From Mobula birostris (lineage: Eukaryota): a stretch of 64,000 bases of DNA. The notes beneath the pieces are model-generated. The model was given only the letters and a program-made list of their open reading frames with translations. It did not search any database and was not told the origin of the DNA. The position numbers and the translations under genes were made by a program. Of this stretch, positions 2,256 to 62,418 are shown in pieces (the stretch's first letter is position 1; the number at the start of each line of letters is the position of its first letter). Location of the stretch: positions 129,409,025 to 129,473,024 of the forward strand of contig NC_092371.1 in assembly GCF_030028105.1 (NCBI RefSeq). Reading direction: 5' to 3'.

Positions 2256-5200
2256 GGCTGGGTGCTTAGCCCCCTGCTCTATTCGCTTTACACTTACGTC
2301 TCTGTAGCCAAACTTGAAGCATATCCAAGTTTGCTAATGATGCCACTGTTGTAGGCCGAATCAAAGACAGTGATGAATCAGCATATACGAGGGAGATTGA
2401 GTGAGTAGCGCCATAACAACAACCTTTCAATGTCAGTAAGACCAAGGAGCCGATTACTGACTTCAGGAGCAGGAAACCAGAGGTCCATAACCCAGTCCTC
2501 ATCGAAGTATCAGAGGAGAAGGTCAGCGACTTTAAATTTCTAGTTGTTATTATTTTGGAGGATCTATCCTGTGCCCTGGGTGCAGCATATGAGCAATTAT
2601 GAAGAAATCATGACAGAGGCTCTAATTCCTTCAGAGCTCGTGAAGATTTGATATGACATCTAAAACTTTGACAAACACTGTAGGTGTGTAGTGGAGACTA
2701 TACTGACTGGCTGTATCACAGCCTGGTATGGAACAGCAAATCCTATAAAAAGTAGTGGATATGGCCCAGTCCATCATGGGTAAAGTCCTCTACGCCACTG
2801 AGCACATCTACGTGAAACACTATCACAGGAAAGCAGCATCCAACATCAAGGAACCCACTACCTAGGACATGCTCTCTTCTCGCTGCAGTCATCAGAAAAG
2901 TGTTATAGGAGCCTCAGGACTCACACCACCAGGTTCAAGAACAGTTATTACCCTTCAACCAACAAGGCTCTTGAACAATAGGAGATAACTTTCCTCAACT
3001 CCACCTGCCCCATCACTGAAAAGTCCCCACACTACCTATACACTCACTTTCAAGGACTCTTCATCGCCTGTTTCCGATACTTATTGTTTATTTATTTATT
3101 ATTGTGATTTCTTTCCTTTTGTATTTGCAATTTGTTGTCTTTTGCACACTGGTTGAAAGCCCAATTTGGTGCTATCTTTCATTGATTCTGTTATGGATTT
3201 ACTGAGTATGCTGGTAAGAAAGTGAATCTCAGGGTTGTAGATGGCGACAGATGATGGTGGTCCCTGAACTTTGAATGGACGAGTTGGGCTGAAGGGCTTG
3301 TTTCCATGCTGTATGATTATAGGTCTCACTGCTGCGAGAAGCTAATTTTCCACGGCATGTCAAAGTCAGATTCCTCACATGTACAAGTACATGTCTGCAG
3401 AGGTGCAATGAAACAAAATCTTACAGCAGCATCACAGGCACACAGTATTAACATACTGAAAAACAAATTAAACAAAATTATATGAGAAAGAACACAATTA
3501 GAACAACATAAAACAAAGCTATTGGGGTTGTGCAGGTATTTCAACAACCAAGTGGCTGAAGTAGCTCTTCTTGAACCTGGTGGCAAGGAACTTAGTACCT
3601 CCTGATCAAGGCACAAGATGTCAGGCCACTATGGTGTACTGAAATCCTATGCTGACCAACTAGCTGGAGAGTTCAAGAAAATCTTCAACCTCCCACTGCT
3701 GTGGTCTGAGCCTCCTTAAAAGGACAGCAATCATACCAGTGCCAGAGGCAGGGTGAGCTATCTTAACAACTACCAACCAGTAGCACACAAATCTACCATA
3801 ATGAAGTACTTCCAGAGGTTGGTTATGGCTAGAATTACTCCTGCCTGAGCAAAGACCTGAACCTGCTGCTTTTCAAATATAGTTCAGCATTCAATATCAT
3901 CCTCTTGGAATTAGTCAAGAAACTTCAAAACCTGAGCCTCTGTACCTCCTGCTGCAACAGGATCCTCGACTTTCTTAGTGGGAGACCACAGTCAATATGG
4001 ATCAATGACATCATCTCCTCCTCACTGATCATGAACACAGGTGCACCTCACAGATGTGTGCTTAGCCCACTCCTCTTCTCTACTATATATTCATGTCTGC
4101 GTGGCTTGGCACAGCCCAAACATCATCTGTAAATTTGCAAGTGAAACTGCTATTGTCGGCAGAATCTCAGATGGTGATAAGGAGGCGTACAGGAATAAGA
4201 CAGAATAGTGGTTGATGATTAGAATCAGAATCAGGTTTAATACCACAGTGACTATGTTGTGAAATTTGTTATCCTTATGGCAGCAGTACAATGAAATACA
4301 GAGAAAAAAAACTGAGTTACATTAAGTATATATATTCGTTGGTGGTGGGGATCCTTAACGGTGGATGCTCCTTGAAGATGTCTTGGACACAAAGGTTGGC
4401 ATCCATGATGGAGCTGACTAATTTCACAAGTTTCTGCAACTTTCTTTGATCTTGTGCAGTAGCACCCCCGAAATACCAGATGGTGATGCAGCCAGTCAGA
4501 ATGCTCCCCACAGTACATTTGTAGAAGTTTGTTTTTGAGTTGACAAACCAAATCTCAAACTACTAATGAAATATAGCCGCTGTCTTGCCTCCTTTATAGC
4601 TGCATTACATATGTTTCGTACAGGTTAGGTCCTCAGAGATATTGACACTGATGAATTTGAAATTTCTCACTCTCTCCACTTCTGATCCCTCCATTAGAAT
4701 TGGTTTGTGTTCCCTTGTCTACCATTTCTGAAGTCCACAATCAGCTTTTTGGTCTTGCTCACACTGAATGTAAAGGTCATGCTGCAACACCACTCAATTA
4801 GCTGGTATATATCTCACTCCTCTACACCCTTTCGTCACCATCTGAAATTCTGCCCACAACGGTTGTATCATCAGCAAGTTTATAGACGCTGTTTGACTAA
4901 TGCCTGGCCACACAGTCATGGGTGTAGAGAGTAGAGCAGTGGGCTAAGCACACACCCCTGTGGTCTGCCAGTGTTGATAGTCAGCAAGGTGGAAATGGTA
5001 CGTCCAATCTGCACAGACTGCGGTCTTCTGGTTAGGAAGTCGAAGATCCAGTTGCAGTGGGAGAAAGAGAGGCCTAGGTTCTGTAGTTTTTCGATCAGGA
5101 CTGGAGGAATGATGGTGTTAAATGCTGAGAATCCAATAAACAGCATCCTGGTATGGGTATCTGCATTGTCCGGGTGATCCAAGGCTGCATGGAGAGCCCC

Positions 5201-6560
5201 TGAGAACACATCTGTTGTAGCCCTATTGTGGTAATGGGGAAATCACAGTGGGTCCAGGTCCTTCCTGAGACAGGTGTCGATTTTAGCCATGACCAACCTC
5301 TCAAAGCGCTTCATCAACATAGATGTGAGCGCTACTGGACAATAGTTGTTAAGACAGTTCACACTGCTCTTCTTGGGCACTGATATAATTGTTGCCCCTT
5401 TGAGGCAGATGGGAAATTCTGATTCTAGCAGTGAGGGATTGAAAATGTCTTTCAACACCCCCCACCAGTTGGCTAGCAAAGGTTTTCAGAACCTTGTACT
5501 CCATCGGGCCCTGGTGCCTTGCGAGGGTACAGCACCTTGAAAGACAGCATAATGTTGTCTCTGAGAGAGGACACAGGGTCACCAGATGCTGCTGAGATCC
5601 TCATAGCTGTAGTTTTATTCTCCCTTTCAAAGCGAGCATAAAAGATGTTGAACTCCTCTGGTAGTGAAGTATCGCTGCCATTCATGATGTTGGGTTTTGT
5701 TTTGTAGGAAATAATGGCCTGCAAATGCTGCCAGAGTTGACTTGCATCCAATGTTGCCTCTCTCGGAATTGTTTCTTGGCTCTTGAAATAGCCTTTTGCA
5801 AGTCGTACCTGGTTTTCTTTTAAAGACCTGGGTCACCAGACATAAACACCTTAGCAGACTATGAACCTTCTGGTTCATTCACAGCTTTTGGTTTGGGCAT
5901 GACAGCAAGTTTTCGTTAGCACACACTCATCCACACAGGTTTTAATGAAGTCAGTCATAACTGGCACACTGCAATAGCAACCTAAAACCCATTGTCAACA
6001 AGACCAAAGGAATCGATTGTGGACTTCAGGAAGGGTGAAAATCAGGAGAAAATGCACCAGTCCTCATTAGGGATCTGTTGTGGAAAGAGTGAGCATCTTC
6101 AAGTTCCTGAGGATTTGTCCTGGGTACAACACATTTATGCAGTCTTGAAGGCAGCATGCTAATCGCTTTACTTCATTAGAAATTTGAAGAGATTGGCTAT
6201 GTCACCAAAGACTCTTACAAATTTGTATAGATGTACAGTGAAAAGCATCCTGACACTCTGCACCACAGTTTGTTATGGAGCATCTAATACACAGCATCGC
6301 AAGAGGCTACAGAAGTCTGTTGGCAGCTAGCTCTATCACAGGCACAACCCTCCCCACCAGAAGACGTCTTCAACAGGCAGTGCATCAAGGAAGCTGCATC
6401 CTTCATTAAGGAGCCTCATCGTCTGGGATATGCCCCCTTCTGTTTACTACCATTGTGGAGGAGATACAGAAGCCAGAAGACCCACACTCAAACACTCAAT
6501 TCAGAAACAGCTTCTTCCACTCCGGCATCAGAGTTCTGAATGGACAATTAATCCATGAAG
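2256..6560. mobile_element. cluster of decayed Rex1/Babar-type LINE RT fragments (2256-3260 +, 3630-4200 +, 4330-5960 -, 5985-6560 +)
   Basis: Motifs TG(A/R)[53 protein letters not shown]; many stops and frameshifts. Confidence 0.75.
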
Positions 6561-6889
6561 ACTAGTACTTCATTAAAGCTTTATTGTGCTTTGAACAGCA
6601 GCCGTTCGTGTGAGAAGATGCAGCTCATCAGGTTTGCCAATTGAGTACATAAGGCATTGATTCACAGCAGTTTGGTGATCTGTGTAGCAGCCAATCAGTG
6701 ATTGGGATTGATTGGCAAGATCAAATTAAAATAAGGGAGGGGCAAGCACAGTGGCCATTGCTGGAGTGGACAGTGTTACAGCGGGAATTTTGAGACTTCA
6801 GTTAGGTGAGGCTCGCTGAACTCCAGATCATTCAAGAGTCTGAGGGGATGATGGATAGGATATATAGAGATACAGTTACATGGAATTTA

Positions 6890-7615
6890 GAGGAATAAAT
6901 TTGTAGAAAGATTGCAGACTGTTGCAAGAAACACAAGGTTGTTATAGTTGATGATTTTAAACTTTCCACATATTACTAGGACTTCCATACTGTAAAAGGA
7001 CTAGATGGGAAGCAGTTTGCCAAATGAGTTCAGGAAAGTTTCCTTAATTGGCACATAGAAGTCCCAGTGAGAGAGTGTTCAATACTTATGTCCTATTAGG
7101 AAATGACACAGGGCAGGCGACAGAGGTTTTGAAACTAATGGCATTATAATCACCAGATGCAAAGCAAATATGGAAAAAAGATAGGTCTGGTCTGTGGGTT
7201 GAGATTGTAAATTGGAGAAAGGCCATTTTTGATGGTATCAGAAAGATACCAGAAACTGTGGATTGGGTCAGGCTGCTTTCTGGCAAAGATCTACTTGGTA
7301 AGTGGAAAAGCCTACAAAAGAAAAATTCTGAGAGTACAAAGCTTGTACGTGCCTATCAGCATAAAAGGTCAGATAACAGGTTTGGGGAATCTTGGTTTTC
7401 AAGAGATCATTGAGGCCTTGGGTTAAGGGGAGGAAAAAAAAAGGAGGTGCATAGCAGGTATAGGCAGGTAGGAACAAATGAGGTGCTTATAGAGTATGAG
7501 AAAGGCAAGAAAATATTTAAGAAAATTAGGAGGCTAAAAGGCGGCATAAGGTTACCTTAGCAGACAAGGTGAAGGAGAATCCTAAGGGATTCTACAGATT
7601 ATGTTAAAAGCAGAA
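6890..7615 (+). mobile_element. decayed CR1 LINE fragment (endonuclease/tether region)
   Basis: Similar in reverse orientation to the CR1 at 16050-16850 (KVKENPKGFY, NWRKA motifs). Confidence 0.6.
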
Positions 7616-8796
7616 GGTTCACACAGGTGATTATGTGTTTGAATCCCATTCTTCCCATAATCCTAACCCTTTTACCTGAATCCTGAACCTATTGATCTCA
7701 GTCGATCTCTATCCTAAAGACACTCACCACTTGACCTCCAGATTCCTCTGTGGCAATGAATTCCAGATTCTCCAACCACTGGCTGAAGAAATTCCCCTTC
7801 ATCTCACTTCTAAAGGGATGTCTCTTTATTCTGAGGCTGTGGCCTCCGATCTTAGACTCTCCTACTAACTGGAAAAAAACCTCTCCACAAACAACTCCTT
7901 CACTACTGCTTTATGGCAGGGTGGGTGGGTGGGGGTGTGTGTGTGTGTGTGTGTGCACGTGCATGGTGTGTGTGCGCCTCTACTTACTTACTTTTCTACA
8001 TCTCATATCAATTCCATGAGGGTGAATTTTATTCCGTAGCTCAAAACTGAGGAGTAATGTGTGGCTGTAACACAAGGGGATGCTCCCACTCACGGCAACC
8101 TGCAGTTAGATCTCCTGCATAGCGTTAGGATTCATATGATAGACTCGGAGTTACACAGCATATAAACAGGCCCTTCAGACGGACTCACCCATGCATTCAA
8201 CCCGTAAGCTCCCTAAACATTTACTATATATGTAACTGCCAAAATACTTTTTGAATGTTTTAATTGCACTTGTCTCATACACTCCAGGGCAAAAAAAAAT
8301 CCAGTCTATCCAGTCTTTCCTTAAAACTCAAGACTCCCCAGTCCTAGTAACACCCTAGTAAATCTTCTGTGAACACATTCCAACTTAATGACACCCTTCT
8401 TGCAGCAAGGTGATCAGGCAATCAGAGCTCCGTACAATAAAAAGAATCTGCTGGAGGAACTCAGCAGGTTGAGCAGCATGTTTGCAGCATCTGTGGAGGG
8501 AAACAAATTGTCCACAATTTGGGTCAAAACTCAGCATCAACCTGCTGAGTTCCTTCAGATGCCAGCACCTGCAGTCTCATGTCTACAGAGTACACGTAGC
8601 AACACATCCCAACTCTTCCACGAAGCATCAAGGGGAATAATGCAAAGGTTCTGCCTTGATGTGAGGACATAAAAGATCTGGAAAAAGTAGAGTGATATCA
8701 AATACTGGGTGATATGATTAAAAAAAAAGGTAGATGGAAATGGCCAACTTTTTCCCCTTAAAAATACAGGTTGTGGAGGTTCAGCTTGTCACCAAA

Positions 8797-9262
8797 TTTT
8801 TTTTTATTTCAAAATATACTTTATTCAACAATAAATATATACAATAAACCATTCCATAACTTTTCATCCTTTACATACATTTCCATTATAGTCAGTACGT
8901 ATCCGTATTTATAGCCACCCACGTGGCACTCCAGTAGTTCAGCTTAGCATCTCATTGTTGAGGGGTATACTCCCCGCCCACCGACCCCTCCCACTCCCAC
9001 GGGTGGAGAAACCTATACTGTAGTCCTTCCCCACCGGGCCCTTGCGGTGGCTGCACCAAGTTTCAGTGCGTCCCTCAGCACGTATTCCTGCAGCCGAGAA
9101 TGTGCCAGTCGGCAGCATTCTCCCACGGACATTTCCATGTGCTGGTAGATCATCAAGTTTCGGGCCGAGCAAAGAGCGTCTTTCACCGAGTTGATGACCT
9201 GCCAGCAGCACCGGATGTTGGTCTCAGTGTGCATCCCCGGGAACAGCCCATAGATCAGAGAT
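8797..9262 (-). mobile_element. Tx1/L1-clade LINE 3' end with AATAAA and poly(A) tail
   Basis: CCWQVINSVKDALCSARNL...CCRLAHSRLQEYVLRDALKLG C-terminus; minus-strand tail aataaagtatattttgaaataaaaaaaaa. Confidence 0.7.
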
Positions 9263-47069: not shown

Positions 47070-48170
47070 CTCTGCTCTCAAATGCATCTCCCCCATTTCA
47101 CATATCTGCTCTCAAACGCATCTCCCCCATTTCACGTACATCTGCTCTCACTCCATCCTCCCGCCACCCCACTAGTAATAGGATTCCCCTGGTCCTCACC
47201 TACCACCCCACCAGCCTCCGGGTCCAACATATTATTCTCCGTAACTTCCGCCACCTCCAATGGGATCCCACCACTAAGCACATCTTTCCCTCCCCCTCCT
47301 CCACTTTCCGCAGGGATCGCTCCCTACGCGACTCCCTTGTCCATTCGTCCCCCCCCATCCCTCCCCCCTGATCTCCCTCCTGGCACTTATCCTTGTAAGC
47401 AGAACAAGTGCTACACATGCCCTTACACTTCCTCCCTTACCACCATTCAGCGACCCAAACAGTCCTTTCAGGTGAGACGACACTTCACCTGTGAGTCGGC
47501 TGGGGTGATATACTGCATCCGGTGCTCCCGATGTGGCCTTCTATATATTGGCGAGACCGCTTTGCTGAACACCTACTCTCTGTCCGCTAGAAAAAGCAGG
47601 ATCTCCCAGTGGCCACACATTTTAATTCCACATCCCATTCCCATTCTGACATGTCTATCCACGGCCTCCTCTACTGTAAAGATGAAGCCACACTCAGGTT
47701 GGAGGAACAACACCTTATATTCCGTCTGGGTAGTCTCCAACCTGATGGCATGAACATCGACTTCTCTAACTTCCACTAATGCCCCACCTCCCCCTCGTAC
47801 CCCATCTGTTACTTATTTTTATACACACATTCTTTCTCTCACTCTCCTTTTTCTCCCTCTGTCCCTCTGACTATACCCCTTGCCCATCCTCTGGGTTTCC
47901 CCCCCTCCCCCTTGTCTTTCTCCCTGGGCCTCCTGTCCCATGATCCTCTCATATCCCCTTTGCCAATCACCTGTCCAGCTCTTGGCTCCATCCCTCCCCC
48001 TCCTGTCTTCTCCTATCATTTCGGATCTCCCCCTCCCACTTTCAAATCCCTTACTCACTCTTCCTTCAGTTAGTCCTGACGAAGGGTCTCAGCCTGAAAC
48101 GTTGACTGTACCTCTTCCTACAGATGCTGCCTGGCCTGCTGCGTTCACCAGCAACTTTGATGTGTGTTGC
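47070..48170 (+). mobile_element. young Penelope-like element fragment (GIY-YIG endonuclease and terminal hammerhead) in sde2 intron 1
   Basis: CKQNKCYTCPY...RRHFTCESAGVIYCIRCSRCGLLYIGET; terminus contains CTGACGA...GAAAC at 48076-48100. Confidence 0.88.
48071..48108 (+). ncRNA. minimal hammerhead ribozyme motif, second near-intact copy
   Basis: tagtc CTGACGA agggtctcagcct GAAA c GTT gactg. Confidence 0.55.
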
Positions 48171-48499
48171 TTCCACTACTACCCATAATAACCCATCCCG
48201 GGTACCTACTACGACATAAACAAATACTTGTGAGGCACTTCAGTCTGCAGCTTGTACATTTAGGTACCTAAATGGCTTTTAATCATAGTGATTGTACCCG
48301 GATCTCCTCTAGCAACGAATTCCAGATAATAACCTCTCTCTGTATTTGGAAAAAAACTTACTCCTCAGATAGTTTTAAAACTCTTCGATCTCACCCTAAA
48401 CCCTCTTGCTCCTGATACCCCTACCGGCGCAGAAAGATTTTACATACTGTACGCTCTATCACATTAAACTCTGATTTAACCAACCACCACCCTGTGCAG

Positions 48500-51851: not shown

Positions 51852-51950
51852 GACAGCCATTTTCTGCAATTGTGTTTTCCAGCGAGAGAGGAATATCTGC
51901 TGTTTTTGCTCGAAAAGAGGCTCGGACGGAGGGGAACCAAGAGCGAATAG
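51852..51950 (+). other. h3f3a: h3f3a non-coding exon 1 within a CpG-rich promoter (~51400-52200)
   Basis: CAGCCATTTTCTGCAATTGTGTT (YY1-type CCATTTT; resembles the mammalian H3F3A 5' leader as I recall it); strong donor TAG|gtgagt after 51950. The 5' end is approximate. Confidence 0.7.
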
Positions 51951-54900
51951 GTGAGTATCAGTGTGTGTTGTATTAATTCGACAGACGACAACTTTCACAG
52001 GCACGTCAATGCAGTCTTTCTCCACAGTTTACCGCCCCCTTGTATTTACGTTGTAGCTGCTCTTTGTGAGGGCTAACGCTGCTTTAACAAACTTTAAGGT
52101 ATCCATTTTGTGCCAGCAACATTGTAACGAAACTCGCGCGTTCCTGGGTCAACGTTCCAGTTTCTTCTCACTTGTATCTTCGCTCTCTCTCTGTGAAACA
52201 CCCCCTCTCTGCGCTCTGCGCCGTATTTAGATCGCTCTTAATGTTATTGTTAGTTTATTTCTCTTTTCTTTTATTATTGTTTACAACTCCAACCCCAGAA
52301 AGTGTTTCGATTTCGTTTCGTCAATTTACAAGGACTTCCGTAATTGGTGTTTATAAGCGTGTTGCTTGAGGGTATATGGGCTTACTTTTAGCATTAGTTG
52401 CAAAACAGAGAGGCGAAAGAGGAATATTTAATTTCGCTTTGTTTTCCTCGTCACCTTCACCATCTTTGCTTGCTCTCTCTCCTTTGTTGCATCGCCCATT
52501 TTAACCACGGGTGTCCTCTATAGTTCTCATTCAACACAACTGTGTTCTTGTTTTTAAGTTTGTTTTTTTTTGGGGAGGTGAGTGAGCAAATATTAAAATT
52601 GATCTGTTTTATATTTTGTAACACTCGACCAGACTGTTACAGAATGTAAATTGTAAGGCGGGAGTTGGATCAGTTGCTGTTTCAAACTGGGCTGCTTGTG
52701 TAGTCTTAAACAAGCTATTCGCTTCCCACAGCACTCATCTCTACACCAGGCTGAGAATGTGTTGTATTTACTTGTATTTGGTGTAGTTTTTTTTTCGTAT
52801 CCATTTCAATGATTGGTGCAAAAAATGCAGTTCACATTCGATGCGTCCCCTCCACTTCCTGCACCTATCGATTACCAACACTGGTAGCCCGTGTTTTCTA
52901 TTGCAGATAACAGGAACGGATTGCGTGGGAGTTGGAATGGAAAAATGGCCAAAAGTTTAAAGAACAAAAATAGTGAATAGTTCTAAACAGGGAGGTGGAA
53001 TTTTAGTTGGTTCAGCACCGTTTCCCAAAATGTACGATAATGATTCAATGCCTTTTCGGCTTAACGGAGATGCCTTTCATCCAATAAACAGAAATTGGGA
53101 AAACTTTCTCAAAATATCTGAGAACTTCTCACCCAGGTAGAGGTTATACTTGAAACCTAATTTCTGCATTAACGTGTTGTCACCTAATTCAGTTGTAAGA
53201 TAGTGACCTCTCTTTAACACCCTCCTGGCAGTAAAACTCCAGTAATCCAACACACGTGGGATGTTGAGACTGGGAGATCTCTGAGTATTGGATGTTTATC
53301 CACAACCTCCCCTGCAGTTTAATTGAAAATGTTACACTGCGGTATAATTGCCCAGTGAACCAGACAAGTTTTTAAGGGTAAACGACAGGAATTCTGCAGA
53401 TGCTGGAAATTCAAGCAACACACATCAAACTCACGAAGGGTCTCGGCCTGAAACGTTGACTGTAGTTCTTCCTAGAGTTGCTGCCTTGCCTGCTGCGTTC
53501 ACCAGCAACTTTGTGTGTTGCTCAAGTTTTTAAGGGTACTGCGTGCGTGAGCTGAGCCTGCGGAGAGGTTGGCAAATGTTCCCTGGTGGTCTGGATTGTA
53601 AACCACCAGGAATTCTGGATTATCAGATAGTGGATTATCGGAGTTCTGCTGTAACATTGGACCCCATACATTGTGCTGGTAGTGTCGACTACTTGCTTTC
53701 CTGTTGTCAATGGTGAATTTGCTGATGTGTCAACTGTTGAGTTGGGGGGTGGAAGATACTGTCAAGTGAAGATTGTTCAGATTCTGTGGTGGTTACCACT
53801 GGAGAGGCGAGGGGTGGGGGAAGACCAGCCTCTGGTAACCTTGTATTGAGCTGAAGGTGACATTCTATATGCCAGACTGGCCTCTTGAAATGGCCCAGCC
53901 CACATACCGAGAGGGAACACCTGCCAACTGACACATTCACCATTATGAATGCCCATTTGGCCGTGGGAGGCGTCTCTTTCTGGGGTGGGGAGTGCAAGGG
54001 GGCAGGAGGAGTCGACCTTTGTTGATATTGGAGACTGCATATGCTGGTTGGAGGGAAATGGACAGATAATGTTGGGTTGACCCACCCTGGCCATGCTTCT
54101 TTCTCCTGTCGGGCAGAGACACAACAGCTCTGAGAGTTCGTACCACCAGGCACAAGGACAGCATCTGTCCTGCTGTTCTGAGACTCTGACGTGGACCTCT
54201 CCGACACTCTTGATTGTTCAGTCTGTCTTGTCATCGCCCTTGAACTTTGCTTAATTCCACTGCACTTTCCCTGTAACTGCATTATTTTGTTCCTTTTTCA
54301 CTACTTCAGCGTACGTGTGTCTGGATTGATCTGTCTGAATAGTATGCAAACAAAGGCATTTCACTTTATCTTGATACACAGGAGGATGATGAAACTGATA
54401 CAAAACGTAATTGTATCAGGAGGGATTGGCACAAGGCCAATTCCAGCAGCGTTCTACACGTGGTGTGACCAAGTTAGATTGTGTAGGCTTGTGAATTGAG
54501 CATTGTAATTTATCCATTATTTTCACGCTCTCCCCTCCCGCCTGTAGTTTGTTAGTTTTTGCCGCTGTTGCTACTTCTAACTGGTGCTCTCCAGTCGTTC
54601 AGGGTTAACACTTCACACTCTCCAGTGCAACTCACCAGGGCCCCAGTTCCAGCTGTAACTTGGCAAAATTACTGGGAATTTTATCTGACATCAAAAAGTT
54701 CTAATTAAAAGTGCATTGGGAAATTCGAACAAAGAATAAGTTGAAAGCAAATGGGGCTAGGTTAGATGGGTAACCTGGTTAGAAGGGCTGAGTCCCTCTT
54801 AACCTCCCAGTTAGTTCTGACGAAGGGTCCCAGCCCAAAACGTCAACTGTACCTCTTCCTATAGATCCTGCCTGGCCTGCTGCGTTCACCAGCATTTTGT

Positions 54901-54999
54901 GTTGCATTTTCAGCATCTGCAGATTTTCTCGTGTTTGCGTCCCTCTTAATTATTGGTTTATTAATGTCACAGGTTCGGTGAAAAACTTTGTTTAGCATG

Positions 55000-56060
55000 C
55001 TATCCTTTCAGAAAAGTAAAAAAAAACAGTGCTGAACTATTACAGGTTCAGAGAGAGTGCAGTACAGGTAGACAACAAGGTGCGAGGCCGGATTGTAGAT
55101 GCAGTTCATTTCATCATACTGGTGGGCTGTTCAGTAATCATAACAGTGGAATAGAAGCTGTCCTTCCAGGCTTTTCTATCTTCTGCCCGTTGAGAGAGGG
55201 GTGAGGAAAGAATGCCCAGGGTGGGAGAGGTCTTTAATTCTCTCGGCTGCTTTACCGAGGCAGCAGGAAGTTATAGACAGAGTCCGGGGGGGGTGGGGGG
55301 CTGGTTTCTGTGATGTGCCGAGCTGTGTGCACAACTCTGCAGTTTCTTCTGTTCTTGGCAGACCGGTTCCCATACCAAGCCGTGATATGTCTCGTTAGGG
55401 TGCTTTCTGTGGTGCGTCTGTAGTAATTGGTGAGGGTTCCTTAAGGTTGTCATAACCGGAGGAGGTAGTGGGAACAAGCTCCCACCACCTATGGAATGCT
55501 CCCAGTGGTGTGCATCTCCAGTGGCTTCTGAGAACCAAGCCTTCATGTGTGGCTGAGCGACTGAGCCTGGAAGAATTGTTTCTACTGACAGCCCTACGTT
55601 GAGTTCAGTGCTGACTGGCAGTCTTACAATGTCCCTGTATCGGCCTCTCTATTCTTTGGATTGATCGGGTGCGTGGAGAGGGGGAGTCTGCTGCATGGGT
55701 AATAGATTGTTCTCCATATCGTACTGCCCTGACTTGTGTATCACATTGCGTCCTCGTGGTCAATGTCAGTGGTCAGCCCTGACCCAACAGAGGGCCTCAT
55801 GAGAGTCAACAGAGACGTGCAAATTTCCTTTGTCTTCTGAGGAATGAGAGACACTGATGCACTTCTTTGGCCTTGGCATCTGTGTGGTTGGATGAGGTCA
55901 GGCTATTGGCAATGTTTGCACCCAGGAACTTGAAGCTATCAACCATCTATACCTCAGCACCATGGATACATCCAGAGGCGTGGACTCTGCCCTCCCTCCT
56001 GAAGTCAGAATCATTTCCTTTGTTTTGCTGACACCGAGGGAGAGGTTGTTGACACCATGC
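55000..56060 (-). mobile_element. decayed Rex1/Babar-type LINE 3' fragments
   Basis: NNLSLGVSKTKEMIL.F, KAAERIKDLSHPGHSFLTPLSTGRR. Confidence 0.6.
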
Positions 56061-56803
56061 CAGGGAAACTCTACTCCACTTCCTGGTCCGTGGCTCAGAT
56101 TGCATTGGGTCCGACTTGTTCCTATTGGCACTCGGATTCTGTATTTGTGTGTCAGGCATCAGGTGATAGACCACAAGACTTCCCTGACAGCGTGTGCCTT
56201 TGGTCACCCTTTCCAATTAACTGGGGAGCCTGCCTTTTAGCTGAGTTGTTCAGACAGCTCTTGGGTGAACGTTAGGTAGATCAGATGAAATTGAATGCTG
56301 AGAAATTAGATGAAATGCTTTCTCATGATATCAGAGGAAGGGATTGGGCCCATCAAGTCAATGCTGGCTATGAACAATCCTATTCTTTCCACACTCCCAT
56401 CAGCTCTCTGCCCACCCCCTCGCAAGAAACCACCACTTATCCGCACACTTACAATTCCGGCGGCCAGTTAATCTACCTACTGATTGGGATGTGAGAGGGA
56501 AACGGCACAGGTGAGAAACCCACATGGTCACAGCGACATGCACCCAAGGTCAGGATTGAACCCCAGTCTCTGGTGCTATGAAGCAGTGGCTCTACCAAAT
56601 CTGCCACTGGGCCATCCCCAGGAAAAGGACGGGGTGGTGACCCTGGTGCAGATCACAGTGGAGTAGTTGTACAGAGTGCATTTGGTCAGTAGTGAGAGGT
56701 CTTGGCTCCTGGTTTACATCCTCATTTTAAAGTACTTTAAGTTTTCAGTTCCTTCCCTCCCTTCCTATCAGTGTCACTTCAGTCATCCAACACAGTCTGT
56801 TAT

Positions 56804-57105
56804 GTCCCTGTAACCTGTGTGTGTGTCGCCCGTCCGTCACGTCCCTGTAACCTGTGTGTGTGTCGCCTGTCCGTCACGCCCCTGTAACCTGTGTGTGTGT
56901 CGTCTGTCCGTCACGTCCCTGTAACCTGTGTGTGTGTGTCGCCCGTCCGTCACGTCCCTGTAACCTGTGTGTGTTGCCCGTCCGTCACGTCCCTGTGACC
57001 TGTGTGTGTCGCCTGTCCGTCACGTCCCTGTAACCTGTGTGTGTGTGTGTCGCCCGTCCGTCACGTCCCTGTGACCTGTGTGTGTGTGTGTGTGTCACCT
57101 GTCAC
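56804..57105. repeat. ~37-bp minisatellite with internal variable (GT)n, 8 units
   Basis: gtccctgt(a/g)acct(gt)n cgcccgtccgtcac repeated. Confidence 0.95.
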
Positions 57106-57537
57106 CCAGGAACACTCTGTGACGGCTGCCCCCATCACCCAACAATCTTTCATCATCTCTGTAAACTGCATCACCGTCATCACCCTATGTCCCTCTCTCA
57201 GCAAACCCTTTCTTCCCTGCATTGCTAAGGTTGAAATGTTTAATACCAGAGAGCATGCATTTAAGTTGTGAGGTGGGTAAGTTCAGTGGAGATGTATTTT
57301 TTTTACACAGTGGTGGGTGCCTGGAATGTGCTTCCAGGAGTGGTGGTGAAGGCAAATCCAATGGGCTATTAGATAGGGACATGAATCTGGAGGAAATGTA
57401 AAGATGGGGACTTTGTGTAAGTGGAAGGGATCAGTTTAATTTTTGTAGATGTGGTGGGCTGTTCCTGTGCTTGTAGTACTTGCTCCCAAAGCAGCATGGG
57501 GAGCAGCAAGAACTAGATGACTGCTAGTTGAGGAATT

Positions 57538-57564
57538 CCCCCCCCCCCCCCCCCCCCCCCCCCC
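57538..57564. repeat. poly-C tract (27 nt)
   Basis: Read directly from the sequence. Confidence 0.9.
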
Positions 57565-59509
57565 GTCTTCATCACAGCAGCCTCTGTTTGTGTAATGGCT
57601 CTGACAATGTAAGTTGCTTCACTTCCCTCACGGTGCAGAGAGGTGTCATAGATTACTGAGTCAAGTTGTAATAAAACTCAGATAACCCACTCTCTGATTG
57701 GAAATCCCAAAGCTTTGGCACCTGGTATGCAAGATGACTCTTTGTAAACTTGCTGTGCTCTCCTACGCATAGGTTCATTGATCAAGATACTGTATTATTG
57801 AGTAACATTTTTAAAAATGAATTAAAAGCATGTGTTATTAAAAGGATTAGCATCTAGTAACCCAGGAAACCTACCAATCTGCCACTTCTGCCATACTAAC
57901 TCTGAGCAAACAAGATGATCAGAGTTTGGTATGTACGGTTGGCTAAAGGCCAAGTAATTGGGCGAAGTCATCTATGGATTTGAACTGAACTTGTCCCATC
58001 AGTGGATTAATGAGTCAAGCAGCATGGAAACAGGCTGTTTGGCCCAACTTGTCTGTGTTGGCTGATATTTCCCTCCGAGCTAATCCCATTTGGCTACACT
58101 AGCCCGTATCTCTGAATCTTTCGAGTGTCCTTTCAAATTTTCCATTTATTGTACCTGTCCAAGTGTCTTTAAAATGTTGTTACTGTGTCCTCTAGCAGCT
58201 CATTCTACATAGGCACACCATCTGTGTGTAAAGTTGCCTCTTAGGTCCCCTTTAAATCTTTTCTCTCTCGCCTTAAACCTATTCCCTCCACTAATCTCCA
58301 GAAGGCCAGCTCCTACTCTCCTTCACTCTCAGCCTATCCAGTCTCTCCGTATAACAGTTGATCATCTTTTCTGCACCCTCTCTAGCTTTCCAGAGCCTGG
58401 AGACAGTTGGTACCTTGTATCCCCTTTCAGTTCATTGGTGTCCTTTGGAAGAAATCTCCGATTCCTTGGCCCTGCGGTGTGTTTCTCCCCGACTGCCGCA
58501 TGTGGAAAGAGGATCCGTGGAGATCAGTTTCACCTCTCCGGGGAACGGATTAAAATGTTGATGCAGTGTGTCCTGGTTAGGGGGAGAGAAATTGACTAAA
58601 TGACCTTTCTCCAGGTTGGGGTAGGGGATGGTGACCCTGTAGGGATTGACCCACCCACTTGGCTGGGTACTCTGTTGCTGCTTATCCATACAGCATGGAA
58701 ATTTCAGCCTAACTCATCTATGCTAATGACAATACCCATCTCAGCTTGCAGGTAAAACAGTTGGCAATTGCTTGGTGTGTTGCTGGCATTCCAATCTTTC
58801 TTCATCTAACTATGGCTTACATGAGCTAAGGGTGAATATTCTGGCATAAATGATTATACACTATCATAGACGAAGTTTGGTGGCTACCAGAGTGCTAATG
58901 GAGAGACAGGGACTGCGAATACTGTCTGTTCGAGCTGCCTGACACACTGAGGTCCTCCTGCAGATATATTTTGTTGCTCCTTGTCCCAGTGTCAGCAGTT
59001 GTCTCAATTTTATTACTCCACTGCAAAGCCTCTTCCATGTGTGCCCACTTTGAAGAAGTTTCCCACCTCTCTGCAGGAGCTGTGTGAGACCCTCTCTCGC
59101 TGCTCCCCCTCTGCGACCCAGTTCAGATAGCACCTCTCCATTCAGAGTTATACAGAGGGTGTTGGGTGCCTGGACTATACTGCCAGGGGCAGTAGTGGAG
59201 GCAAATACCAGTAGTCCAGTAGTGGAGGGATGTCTAGGAGGCTTTTTAATTTGGGGAAATGGTCATTATGTGGGTAGAATGGATTAGATTAGTTAGACGT
59301 TTAATTAAGTCTGGCACAATATCATAGATTGGAGGGCCTGTTCTATTCCTGCAACTGCAGTTTCTTGTCTTGATGTTATGACTTGTTAATGATGGTTGAG
59401 TACTAAGTACTTAAATTGCCTGGATTTGTGACTACCGGTTTGGGGAAAGGGCAATCAACTCCAGGAATGTTACATTTTGGGAGAGATCTGTGGGGACAAG
59501 ATAGTGAAG

Positions 59510-60390
59510 ACGCAAACATGAGGAAATCTGCAGATGCTGGAATTTCAAGCAACACACATAAAAGTTGCTGGTGACTGAGTGTGGCTTCATCTTTACAGTA
59601 GAGGAGGCTGTGGATAGACGTATCAGAATGGGATGTGGAATTAAAATGTGTGGCCACTAGGAGATCCTCCCCAGACAGTCCTTCCAGGTGAGGCGACACT
59701 TCACCTGTGAGTCGGCTGGGGTGATATACTGCGTCCGGTGCTCCCGATGCGGCCTTCTATATATTGGCGAGACCGGACGCAGACTGGGAGATCGTTTTGC
59801 TGAACACCTATGCTCTGTCTGCCAGAGAAAGCAGGATCTCCCAGTGGCCACGCATTTTAATTCCACGTTCCATTCCCATTTTGACATGTCTATCCACAGC
59901 CTCCTCTACTGTCAAGATGAAGCCACACTTAGGTTGGAGGAACAACACCTTATATTCCATCTGGGTAGCCTCCAACCTGATGGCATGAACATTGACTTCT
60001 CTAACTTCCGCTAATGCCCCTCGTACCCCATCCATTATTTATTTATATACACACATTCGTTCTCTCTCTCTCCTTTTTCTCCCTCTGTCCCTCTCACTAT
60101 ACCCCTTGCCCATCCTCTGGGCTCTCCCCCCCCCCCCCCCCTTTCTCCCTAGGCCTCCTGTCCCATGATCCTCTCATATCCCTTTTGCCAATCACCTGCC
60201 CAGCTCTTGGCTCCATCCCTCCCCCTCCTGTCTTCTCCTATCATTTCAGATCTCCCCTCCCCCTCCCACTTTCAAATCTCTTACTAGCTCTTCTTTCAGT
60301 TAGTCCTGACGAAGGGTCTCGGCCCGAAACGTCGACTGTACCTCTTCTTAGAGATGCTGCCTGACCTGCTGTGTTCACCAGCAACTTTTA
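59510..60390 (+). mobile_element. young Penelope-like element (inverted 5' piece 59510-59668, sense GIY-YIG ORF, terminus) in h3f3a intron 1
   Basis: Uninterrupted ORF RRHFTCESAGVIYCVRCSRCGLLYIGETGRRLGDRFAEHL...LEEQHLIFHLGSLQPDGMNIDFSNFR. Confidence 0.9.
60301..60338 (+). ncRNA. minimal type I hammerhead ribozyme motif (Penelope terminus)
   Basis: Stem I AGTC/GACT; core CTGACGA at 60306-60312; stem II GGGTC/GGCCC; GAAA at 60326-60329; GTC triplet at 60331-60333. Confidence 0.7.
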
Positions 60391-60521
60391 AGGTAGTGAA
60401 GGTGTTGGAACAACCCTGTTGCCCTTAAGCTCATTTCACTGCTGCCCTGTGCCAGTCCTGCAGTACTCTCTGCTGTCTAATGTCTTACCTACTCTGTTTG
60501 TGCTTCAGTTGCTAGGATTGA

Positions 60522-60845
<324 letters not shown>

Positions 60846-62418
60846 TAAGTTGGTCCCATTTGCTATGTCTCCATACCTCTGTTCTCTCTCCAGCTTAATG
60901 GCATCTTTCCTGTAGCAGAGTGACCAAAACCAAATACAGTATTCCATATACAGCCTCACCAACCTCTTGTGCAGTGTACTATGTGCTTGGTGTACCTCCA
61001 AAGGGACTTGACCCTCTCTGAATACCTTTTAGGCTGTCATTATTTAAAAAGAATACCCTGCTTTCCATTTTATCTGGGCAGGCTTAATATTATGCCATCT
61101 GCCACATCCTTACAGTTCACTTATCCAGTCACCAAAGCCTCTCCCTGACCACCTCACCACACACCCTGACACTTGGGCAAATACCATCAATGAACTTGGA
61201 TATATTACTTGCTTCCTCTCATCCAGATCACTGGTGGGGATGGTCTAGTACAGATATGTCAGTTTCAGTTTCCCTCATTGGATAATTCAGGAAAGGAGGG
61301 TGAGCCTCAAGAGATGTGGGGATATTGTAGGAAACAGGTGCCATGATTTTGATGAATGGGAGAGTGGGCTCTTGGGGGCCAGATCATCTACTCCTGTTTA
61401 AGAGATACTCAGTCATATTAACTCTATGACTCTCATTTCCAGCAGACTTCAATGCAATGTGCTTCGAGTTGCTGAACTGCCTGAAGTAGATGGGGACAGA
61501 TGAGGCTGAAAGCTTCCCCTGCTGCATTAAGCTTATATTAATCAGCATAGTACTGCTTGCTGGATCTTGTTTTAAGCAGTGGGGTAGAAAGTACTGTGAA
61601 ATTTCCAATATTTTTGTGCCAGATAGTTTTGCATTATAAGATTTAATTTCTATGGAGTCATATAGAGTTCTACAGCAGAGAAACTGACTCTGTTGTCTGT
61701 GTGCAGAAGAGGTTCACCAAAATGCTGCCTGATTAGAGGTTGGGCAAAGTTTTTCTCTGCAGCAGTGGAGGCTAAAGGGGCAACCTGATGGAAGTGTATA
61801 AAAGTGAGAAGCAATAGATAGAATAGAGCCTTTCCCTCCTCTTCTCCCCCACCCCGAGCAGAACTGTCTAATATTAGAGGACATAACTTCAGCATGAGAA
61901 GGGGAAGGGTTTTTAAAGAGTAGTAGGTACCCAGAACATACTGCCAGGGGAAAAGACAGGAGAGTGACATTTACGGGGCATTTGGACGGGCAGAGAATCT
62001 GAGGATATGGATCAGGTGCAGGCAGGTAAGACTAGTTGGGTATCTTGGCTTGACACAGACATTGTGGGCCAAAAGTCTTTTCCTATGTTGTACTGTTCTA
62101 TATTCTGCACCAAATTCTGGCGCAAGGTAGTCCCATTTACCTGTATTAGCCCTCAGTCTAACTACCTTTTTCCTCAGCACTTTAAAAAATTAATAATAAA
62201 TATTCTATTGCACCAATTTGAACAGGAGTGTGGGAACTGGGAGAACCCACAGTGTCAGAGAGAACTTGCAGGCAGCACTGGAGATCAGGATCAAAAGAGG
62301 TCACTGGAGCCATGAGACTTTCCCAGCTGTGCCACTGCACCAGGCCCATCTACCGCCCAATTCACAACTGGGCTCTTCATCGAATTCCTTCAATTAATTT
62401 TTGCCAAAAAGTGCATGA

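Follow-up and report, generated by a model that had tools for sequence, protein, structure and literature searches.

The closest described relatives of the motif reported here are the minimal hammerhead ribozymes of Penelope-like elements. In the experiments described by Cervera and De la Pena (2014, PMC4209133), a single minimal motif showed no detectable cleavage and dimers cleaved at a low level, in line with the first-pass annotation of this locus, which had stated that such hammerheads cut poorly as monomers and better as dimers. In tandem elements, two hammerheads on one transcript are reported to swap strands, thereby completing stem III (PMC6765202). The Poseidon hammerhead of the anole did not cut in vitro without protein, and zero RNA-seq read ends fell at its cut site (PMC11167929). 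Truncated, partly inverted insertions are known from endonuclease-positive Penelope-like elements (PMC8557442), for which a tail and an inverted copy have also been described (PMC8557442; PMC11167929). As for ribozymes within host introns, introns cut slowly by a hammerhead were still spliced, whereas a fast ribozyme blocked splicing (PMC2995048), and the intronic HDV-like ribozyme of CPEB3 affects its host mRNA (PMC10919898).

We analysed a window of 64,000 nucleotides from Mobula birostris (contig NC_092371.1, positions 129,409,025 to 129,473,024 of the forward strand), to which all coordinates below refer. Our main conclusion is that the hammerhead of a truncated Penelope-like copy in intron 1 of H3.3A is very probably an inert passenger. 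The exons in the window translate to histone H3.3, including S31 and A87-I89-G90, which we take to be its signature residues; about 9 kb beyond the window end, the minus strand carries exons of ACBD3, tail-to-tail with this gene, which is presumably the vertebrate gene order at H3F3A. The features of the host gene and of two further element copies in its first intron are as follows.

51929-51950, plus strand: 3' end of the non-coding exon 1 of the H3.3 gene, with the donor GT at 51951 (RNA contig)
51951-60508, plus strand: intron 1 of the H3.3 gene, 8.6 kb (RNA contig)
53387-53520, plus strand: short fold-back stub of the Penelope-like element (the 53425 stub)
54808-54941, plus strand: another short stub of that element (the 54812 stub), its hammerhead having G12 changed to A
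60509-60664, plus strand: exon 2 of the H3.3 gene, with the ATG at 60537

The intron boundaries come from contig 23 of run X5 (120 letters), in which 20 letters equal window 51929-51948 and are followed by 60507-60606. This contig joins 51929-51950 to 60509, so that the acceptor is the AG at 60507-60508; the join was seen in one contig of one run, with 22 letters on the exon 1 side, when contigs from 4 of the 24 listed runs were compared with window 57600-61600. None of the listed runs is on record as RNA; run X5 is labelled RNA as a guess, and we treated it as RNA because it contains the spliced join. The depth of the spliced contig was 1725.6, compared with 4.07 and 8.98 for intronic contigs, contig depth being a poor measure of expression and contigs dropping rare forms. 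The spliced H3.3 form thus exists and dominates in run X5. X5 contigs are absent over 60414-60506, but equally so over other parts of the intron, and this gap carries no finding. The first-pass annotation had placed a sense hammerhead upstream of the first coding exon of H3.3A, with a cut after 60333 at about 175 nt from the acceptor, and both points hold: the motif lies in intron 1 of a gene whose exons encode H3.3, and the predicted cut after 60333 precedes the acceptor (60508) by 175 nt. A tandem array with TG runs and a unit length of roughly 35-40 bp also lies in intron 1, at 56805-57100.

The motif is carried by an insertion of 880 bp (59510-60389), a 5'-truncated and partly inverted Penelope-like copy, the parts of which are listed here from left to right.

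59498-59509, plus strand: left target-site duplication (12 bp), identical to 60390-60401 except for one letter
59510-59574, minus strand: inverted terminal-repeat end with "tail" extension, matching other copies in reverse and reaching past their 60388-equivalent
59575-59668, minus strand: inverted ORF piece, 86% like 59833-59932; the long copies L203-L205 match it in reverse
59669-60014, plus strand: GIY-YIG end of the ORF (Pfam PF01541, 27.1 bits against a cut-off of 22.6)
60015-60300, plus strand: pyrimidine-rich 3' UTR/pseudo-LTR, from its sequence aligned to other copies
60281-60299, plus strand: acceptor-like polypyrimidine run with CAG at 60297-60299, from the sequence
60301-60338, plus strand: minimal hammerhead within the pseudo-LTR, core intact
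60339-60389, plus strand: remaining pseudo-LTR up to the right element end (last 51 bp); alignments stop at 60388-60390
60390-60401, plus strand: right target-site duplication, 11 of 12 letters equal to the left copy

The target duplication, the inverted tail and the GIY-YIG remnant around the motif bear out the Penelope-like donor proposed in the first-pass annotation. The 880-bp copy has no RT part. Long copies elsewhere in the genome encode, as read by eye from their translations, an RT with DKG, a CxxxxCxxC linker and then GIY-YIG, and the hammerhead starts 286 nt after the GIY-YIG stop, a placement that is the same in the RT-bearing copies L203-L205. The Pfam scores of copy L204 lie below their cut-offs, both for RVT_1 (E 1.9e-6, 28.2 bits, just under 29.6) and for GIY-YIG (E 0.0015). 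Open frames spanning RT and GIY-YIG reach 699 codons in L203 (G000:C8:40408500-40413000) and 670 codons in L204 (G000:C7:37701500-37706000), none of them demonstrated to be complete. Compared with the description in PMC8557442, the long-copy translations contain the CX2-5CxxC linker finger and the cysteines between GIY and YIG. The combination of RT, CX4CxxC linker and GIY-YIG in these copies points to a Neptune/Nematis-type Penelope-like element as the carrier family, an assignment made from domain content. Segment 59669-60014 is 90-95% identical to its other genomic matches in the best 149 of 187,070 first-look candidates, and the family carrying the hammerhead looks young.

The hammerhead itself, a minimal type I motif on the plus strand, has the same letters as first described and is composed of the following parts.

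60301-60305/60334-60338, plus strand: stem I (sequence)
60306-60312, plus strand: core C3-U4-G5-A6-C7-G8-A9 (sequence)
60313, plus strand: extra A after A9, unpaired, between 9 and 10.1 (sequence)
60314-60317/60322-60325, plus strand: stem II (sequence and fold)
60326-60329, plus strand: G12-A13-A14-A15.1 (sequence)
60329-60332, plus strand: palindrome ACGU, replacing stem III, with no loop 3 (sequence)
60333, plus strand: C17, predicted cut 60333/60334

The core elements CUGANGA (60306-60312), GAAA (60326-60329) and UH (60332-60333) are all present, and helices I and II form in the fold, giving the type I topology. The letters therefore agree with the full core, the type I topology, the extra A and the ACGT palindrome of the first-pass annotation; its stem II of 5 bp with a 2-nt loop, by contrast, is in the fold a stem of 4 bp closed by a CUCG loop, with G60314-C60325 as the G10.1-C11.1 pair. 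A 25-letter hammerhead pattern matched the window three times, as against 0.00 times in 100 shuffles, and reversed-pattern controls gave 0 matches genome-wide. Across 108 distinct copies, 81% of cells pair in helix I and 92% in helix II, compared with 6-29% and 24-71%, respectively, in slid controls; double changes in the same 108 copies numbered 3 and 5, with no excess over the slid controls as a sign of covariation. The first-pass annotation had suggested an Infernal search with hammerhead models; those of Rfam gave no match at E up to 10 (9,001 or 161 bases scanned), and the hammerhead call therefore rests on the core letters and the stems. Rfam hammerhead models expect a stem III. Judged by these letters and stems, the hammerhead motif at 60301-60338 is real and, stem II aside, as first described.

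Structure prediction suggests that the lone motif folds with its catalytic core shut. The core-blocked fold has a predicted energy of -12.9 kcal/mol, compared with -8.9 for the hammerhead-like fold, and the blocking pairs join core G5-A6-C7-G8 with C15.2-G16.2-U16.1-C17. Similarly, the dimer target is predicted at -16.7 kcal/mol, as against -25.8 for two blocked monomers, energies that ignore tertiary contacts and proteins. When the motif was folded in nine context windows, stem I had a probability of 0.00-0.02 in the five with at least 30 upstream bases and formed (0.65-0.99) in the other four, where the core was blocked too.

Both stubs listed above lie in sense orientation, 6.9 and 5.5 kb upstream of the 60301 motif, and both have broken cores, so that intron 1 of H3.3A holds no second intact sense hammerhead. 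In the hammerhead of the 53387-53520 stub, the 5' strand of stem I is missing and G5 is changed to C, while the 3' half (ACGUU/GACUG) is intact. Outside the intron, about 3.8 kb before the donor of exon 1, lies a sense copy of the same element (47454-48172, 88% alike) with a G to A change in stem II.

That the H3.3A motif stands out is not supported by a genome-wide count: the exact 38-letter motif occurs in 4,176 copies, 2,088 per strand, and the relaxed core in at least 57,939 copies in 4.01 Gb. We further compared the strands of such copies inside genes, using 1,546,090 bases within 12 spectrin-repeat or LDL-receptor-repeat loci, defined as the sequence between same-strand domain matches and each assumed to be one gene. 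The 167 alignments in this sample comprise 88 sense and 79 antisense copies. Of the 167, 46 covered fewer than 30 of 36 motif columns and were dropped, which left 121 (64 sense, 57 antisense); among these, the core is intact in 27 sense and 20 antisense copies, and core, both stems and palindrome together in 8 sense and 6 antisense copies (p 0.79; Fisher p 0.78 for the strand of intact versus not-intact copies). Sense copies are thus not depleted in the 12-gene sample, in which numbers are small: the sense share of intact copies has a 95% interval of 0.29-0.82, which leaves mild purging of sense copies possible. Intact sense copies are accordingly common in introns of this genome, and their balance with antisense copies speaks against the family cutting host transcripts strongly. 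Intact sense copies occur at a density of 5.2 per Mb, at which about 4% of introns sized like intron 1 would hold one by chance. With introns numbering on the order of 200,000, about 200 of them would carry an intact sense copy within 200 nt of the acceptor; the position of the H3.3A motif is therefore unremarkable. In the same gene sample, the LDL-receptor-repeat exon matches at G000:C7:186466138-187059137 recur at a distance of about 300-350 kb with the same scores, reflecting either a tandem duplication or an assembly artefact.

The 5' ends of other copies were compared by aligning loci L041-L196 and L001-L030 to window 59669-60389. No copy starts at the cut site (60334), either among the 38 young copies of the gene sample or among the 42 in L001-L030; the nearest starts were at 60331, 60332, 60335 and 60336, BLAST ends being fuzzy and the 80 young copies too few for such a comparison. 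Among young copies, 5' ends are concentrated where the hammerhead begins: in the gene sample, 18 of 38 fall at the equivalents of 60290-60311 and 12 in the 620 bases upstream. This cluster may mark the start of the element RNA or a stalling point of the RT. Many young copies are head-to-head fold-backs.

Turning to conservation, when 49 alignments to 30 loci are compared, the H3.3A copy departs from the majority letter at 34 of 721 columns and, within the 38-letter motif, at 1 of 38. This is no excess conservation, and selection on this copy was rejected as unsupported; a domesticated ribozyme of the CPEB3 type was likewise rejected, on these two rates and the number of exact copies. The motif has kept 4 of its 4 CpGs, compared with 9 of 17 elsewhere in the H3.3A copy, and has G10.1-C11.1 where most sampled copies have G-U, both subject to a picking bias in that the comparison loci were chosen by the motif and the finding was chosen for being intact. 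In a related organism (run X7), whose unique flanks differ by about 1.6%, a DNA contig runs through the left flank and then 23 letters into the element. This overlap falls below the 31 letters required of a bridge, and among the X7 contigs listed none covers the right junction. From this match, the insertion is likely shared with the X7 organism. An X7 contig (organism B) also skips 58526-58890 (about 365 bp), reflecting an insertion here or a deletion in B.

Taken as an inert passenger, the motif would have the following history and fate. A truncated Penelope-like copy inserted into intron 1 of H3.3A, bringing its built-in hammerhead with it. As a lone RNA, the hammerhead would keep its core paired shut, in a fold predicted to be about 4 kcal/mol steadier than the hammerhead-like monomer. 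The active form would need a second copy, with which the ACGU palindrome could complete stem III as in tandem full-length elements, and related elements suggest that even the dimer would be slow and might need the element's own protein. The hammerhead would then leave with the spliced-out intron. At the mammalian rate quoted in PMC10919898, transcribing 175 nt takes about 3 s; as the cut is expected to be slow and the acceptor lies only this distance, a matter of seconds, downstream, a cut would rarely precede synthesis and use of the acceptor. Lying so near the acceptor, we infer, leaves a slow cut less time to have an effect. The first-pass annotation had raised an effect of the motif on H3.3A splicing or output. 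The intron is spliced, intact copies in genes occur on both strands (8 sense, 6 antisense), the lone motif is predicted to be shut and an intact partner is absent from the intron; a regulatory role of the H3.3A hammerhead is unsupported.

Activity of a milder kind, in which the motif cuts a small share of H3.3A pre-mRNAs while the exons are still joined and output is unchanged, seems improbable. The trigger would be pairing with another transcript of the family, or the element protein where it is made. The core and palindrome are intact, and the family is both abundantly represented in RNA-type runs and endowed with long open frames (586-699 aa); protein assists cutting of the anole element in vitro (PMC11167929), slow intronic cuts are tolerated (PMC2995048), and the absent strand bias would be equally expected. 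Against this, the dimer is disfavoured by about 9 kcal/mol in the model, the H3.3A copy is devoid of the RT part, and no fully intact ORF of the family has been demonstrated. Moreover, the protein-binding region of the anole element is proposed to lie at the ORF start, which is missing here save for the tail, with the matching strand inverted. We consider it very unlikely that cleavage tunes H3.3A splicing or output, be it by a cut at 60333 or by a split dimer, with the 60301 copy serving as the enzyme on the GUU site of the truncated copy (53457/53458). Three sense copies do lie within one 8.6-kb intron, the 53425 stub retains a free, complementary substrate half, all four CpGs of the motif are kept, the insertion is likely shared with a related species, and CPEB3 offers a precedent (PMC10919898). 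However, the partners are 5.5-6.9 kb away, and the heterodimers are predicted to be less stable than the separate folds, at -12.1 versus -18.0 kcal/mol with the 53425 stub and -11.8 versus -23.5 kcal/mol with the 54812 stub; strand depletion is absent, spliced mRNA is present, and chance alone would place an intact sense copy in about 4% of introns of this size.

The insertion could also act through splicing signals or double-stranded RNA rather than through the ribozyme, which we regard as extremely unlikely. Use of the CAG at 60297-60299, an acceptor-like sequence immediately before stem I and 209 nt upstream of the true acceptor, would add 209 nt and two upstream AUGs (60354 and 60480) to the 5' UTR, opening short frames that stop before 60537; an intron of Drosophila Penelope is described as ending at helix I (PMC4209133). 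Among the exon 1 joins listed, however, only 60509 is used, in contigs that drop rare forms, and the spliced contig accounts in full for the X5 mean depth of 528 in bin 60414-60547. The other route would be a long hairpin formed by the 94-nt inverted ORF piece, which is 86% complementary to the sense part. A pre-mRNA hairpin of roughly 95 bp between 59575-59668 and 59833-59932 is feasible and is a possible editing substrate. The boldest reading, to which we give very little credence, is that intronic Penelope hammerheads are latent cut sites activated in trans, which would cut host pre-mRNAs and lower H3.3 output. Element protein or family transcripts would be the trigger, for instance during element activity in the germline, and H3.3A would either be self-cut or offer the enzyme half acting on the truncated copy 6.9 kb upstream. 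If this were true, host genes would contain conditional cut sites numbering in the tens of thousands, each of them a retroelement ribozyme. That would be a novel route by which a transposon influences gene output, and the H3.3A locus, with its unique flanks and abundant transcript, would be a convenient test place.

As an inert passenger, and as found here, the H3.3A motif matters little, being one more copy of a described motif. A literature search found no H3F3A hammerhead; this kind of motif has already been published, and the H3.3A locus itself seems absent from the literature searched. Cartilaginous fishes are not named in the part of PMC4209133 consulted here, the supplements of which may list such hammerheads.

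How the locus relates to intronic and tandem ribozymes can be stated for two systems. The motif resembles the CPEB3 ribozyme in being a self-cleaving motif type in sense orientation within a host-gene intron. The CPEB3 ribozyme is described as single-copy, deeply conserved and active as a monomer, with a half-life of 2-3 min and 9.9 kb before the next exon (PMC10919898), whereas the H3.3A motif is a repeat copy of the dimer type with flanks about 5% decayed, 175 nt from the exon. With the non-LTR retrozymes (Li et al. 2026, bioRxiv 10.64898/2026.07.22.740005) it shares a type I hammerhead related to those of Penelope pseudo-LTRs. Retrozymes are presented there as tandem non-coding units with at least two hammerheads, whereas the H3.3A insertion has one plus a coding remnant. 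A non-LTR retrozyme was rejected here: 59510-60389 holds one motif, and the closest neighbours of that motif, 5.5 and 6.9 kb upstream, have broken cores. The conserved intronic hammerheads of amniotes are host-gene, single-copy and deeply conserved, and active as monomers.

Among Penelope-like elements, the family shares with Neptune and Nematis (Craig et al. 2021, PMC8557442) the C-terminal GIY-YIG, its core cysteines, the RT DKG and the linker, as well as 5' truncation, an inverted 5'-end copy, a tail and a target duplication as described in that work; unlike the full elements, the H3.3A copy is an 880-bp remnant with no RT. Anole Poseidon (PAc; Frangieh et al. 2024, PMC11167929) is similar in its vertebrate pseudo-LTR hammerhead and tail signature, but it belongs to another clade (Penelope/Poseidon, devoid of the linker finger), and the protein dependence is known for the anole element. 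The closest likeness is to the minimal hammerheads of PMC4209133, which are described as type I with a full core, no loop 3 and a short helix I, with a palindrome spanning 15.1-16.1, an extra base between 9 and 10.1 and G10.1-C11.1, and as mostly single, dispersed copies from truncated elements, located in the pseudo-LTR. Helix II is 4 bp here compared with 7-8 bp in the Schistosoma families, and the relaxed-core copies far exceed the 4,000-9,000 reported there for coelacanth and Xenopus. Among the sequence features examined, all those of a minimal Penelope hammerhead are present in the letters of the H3.3A motif.
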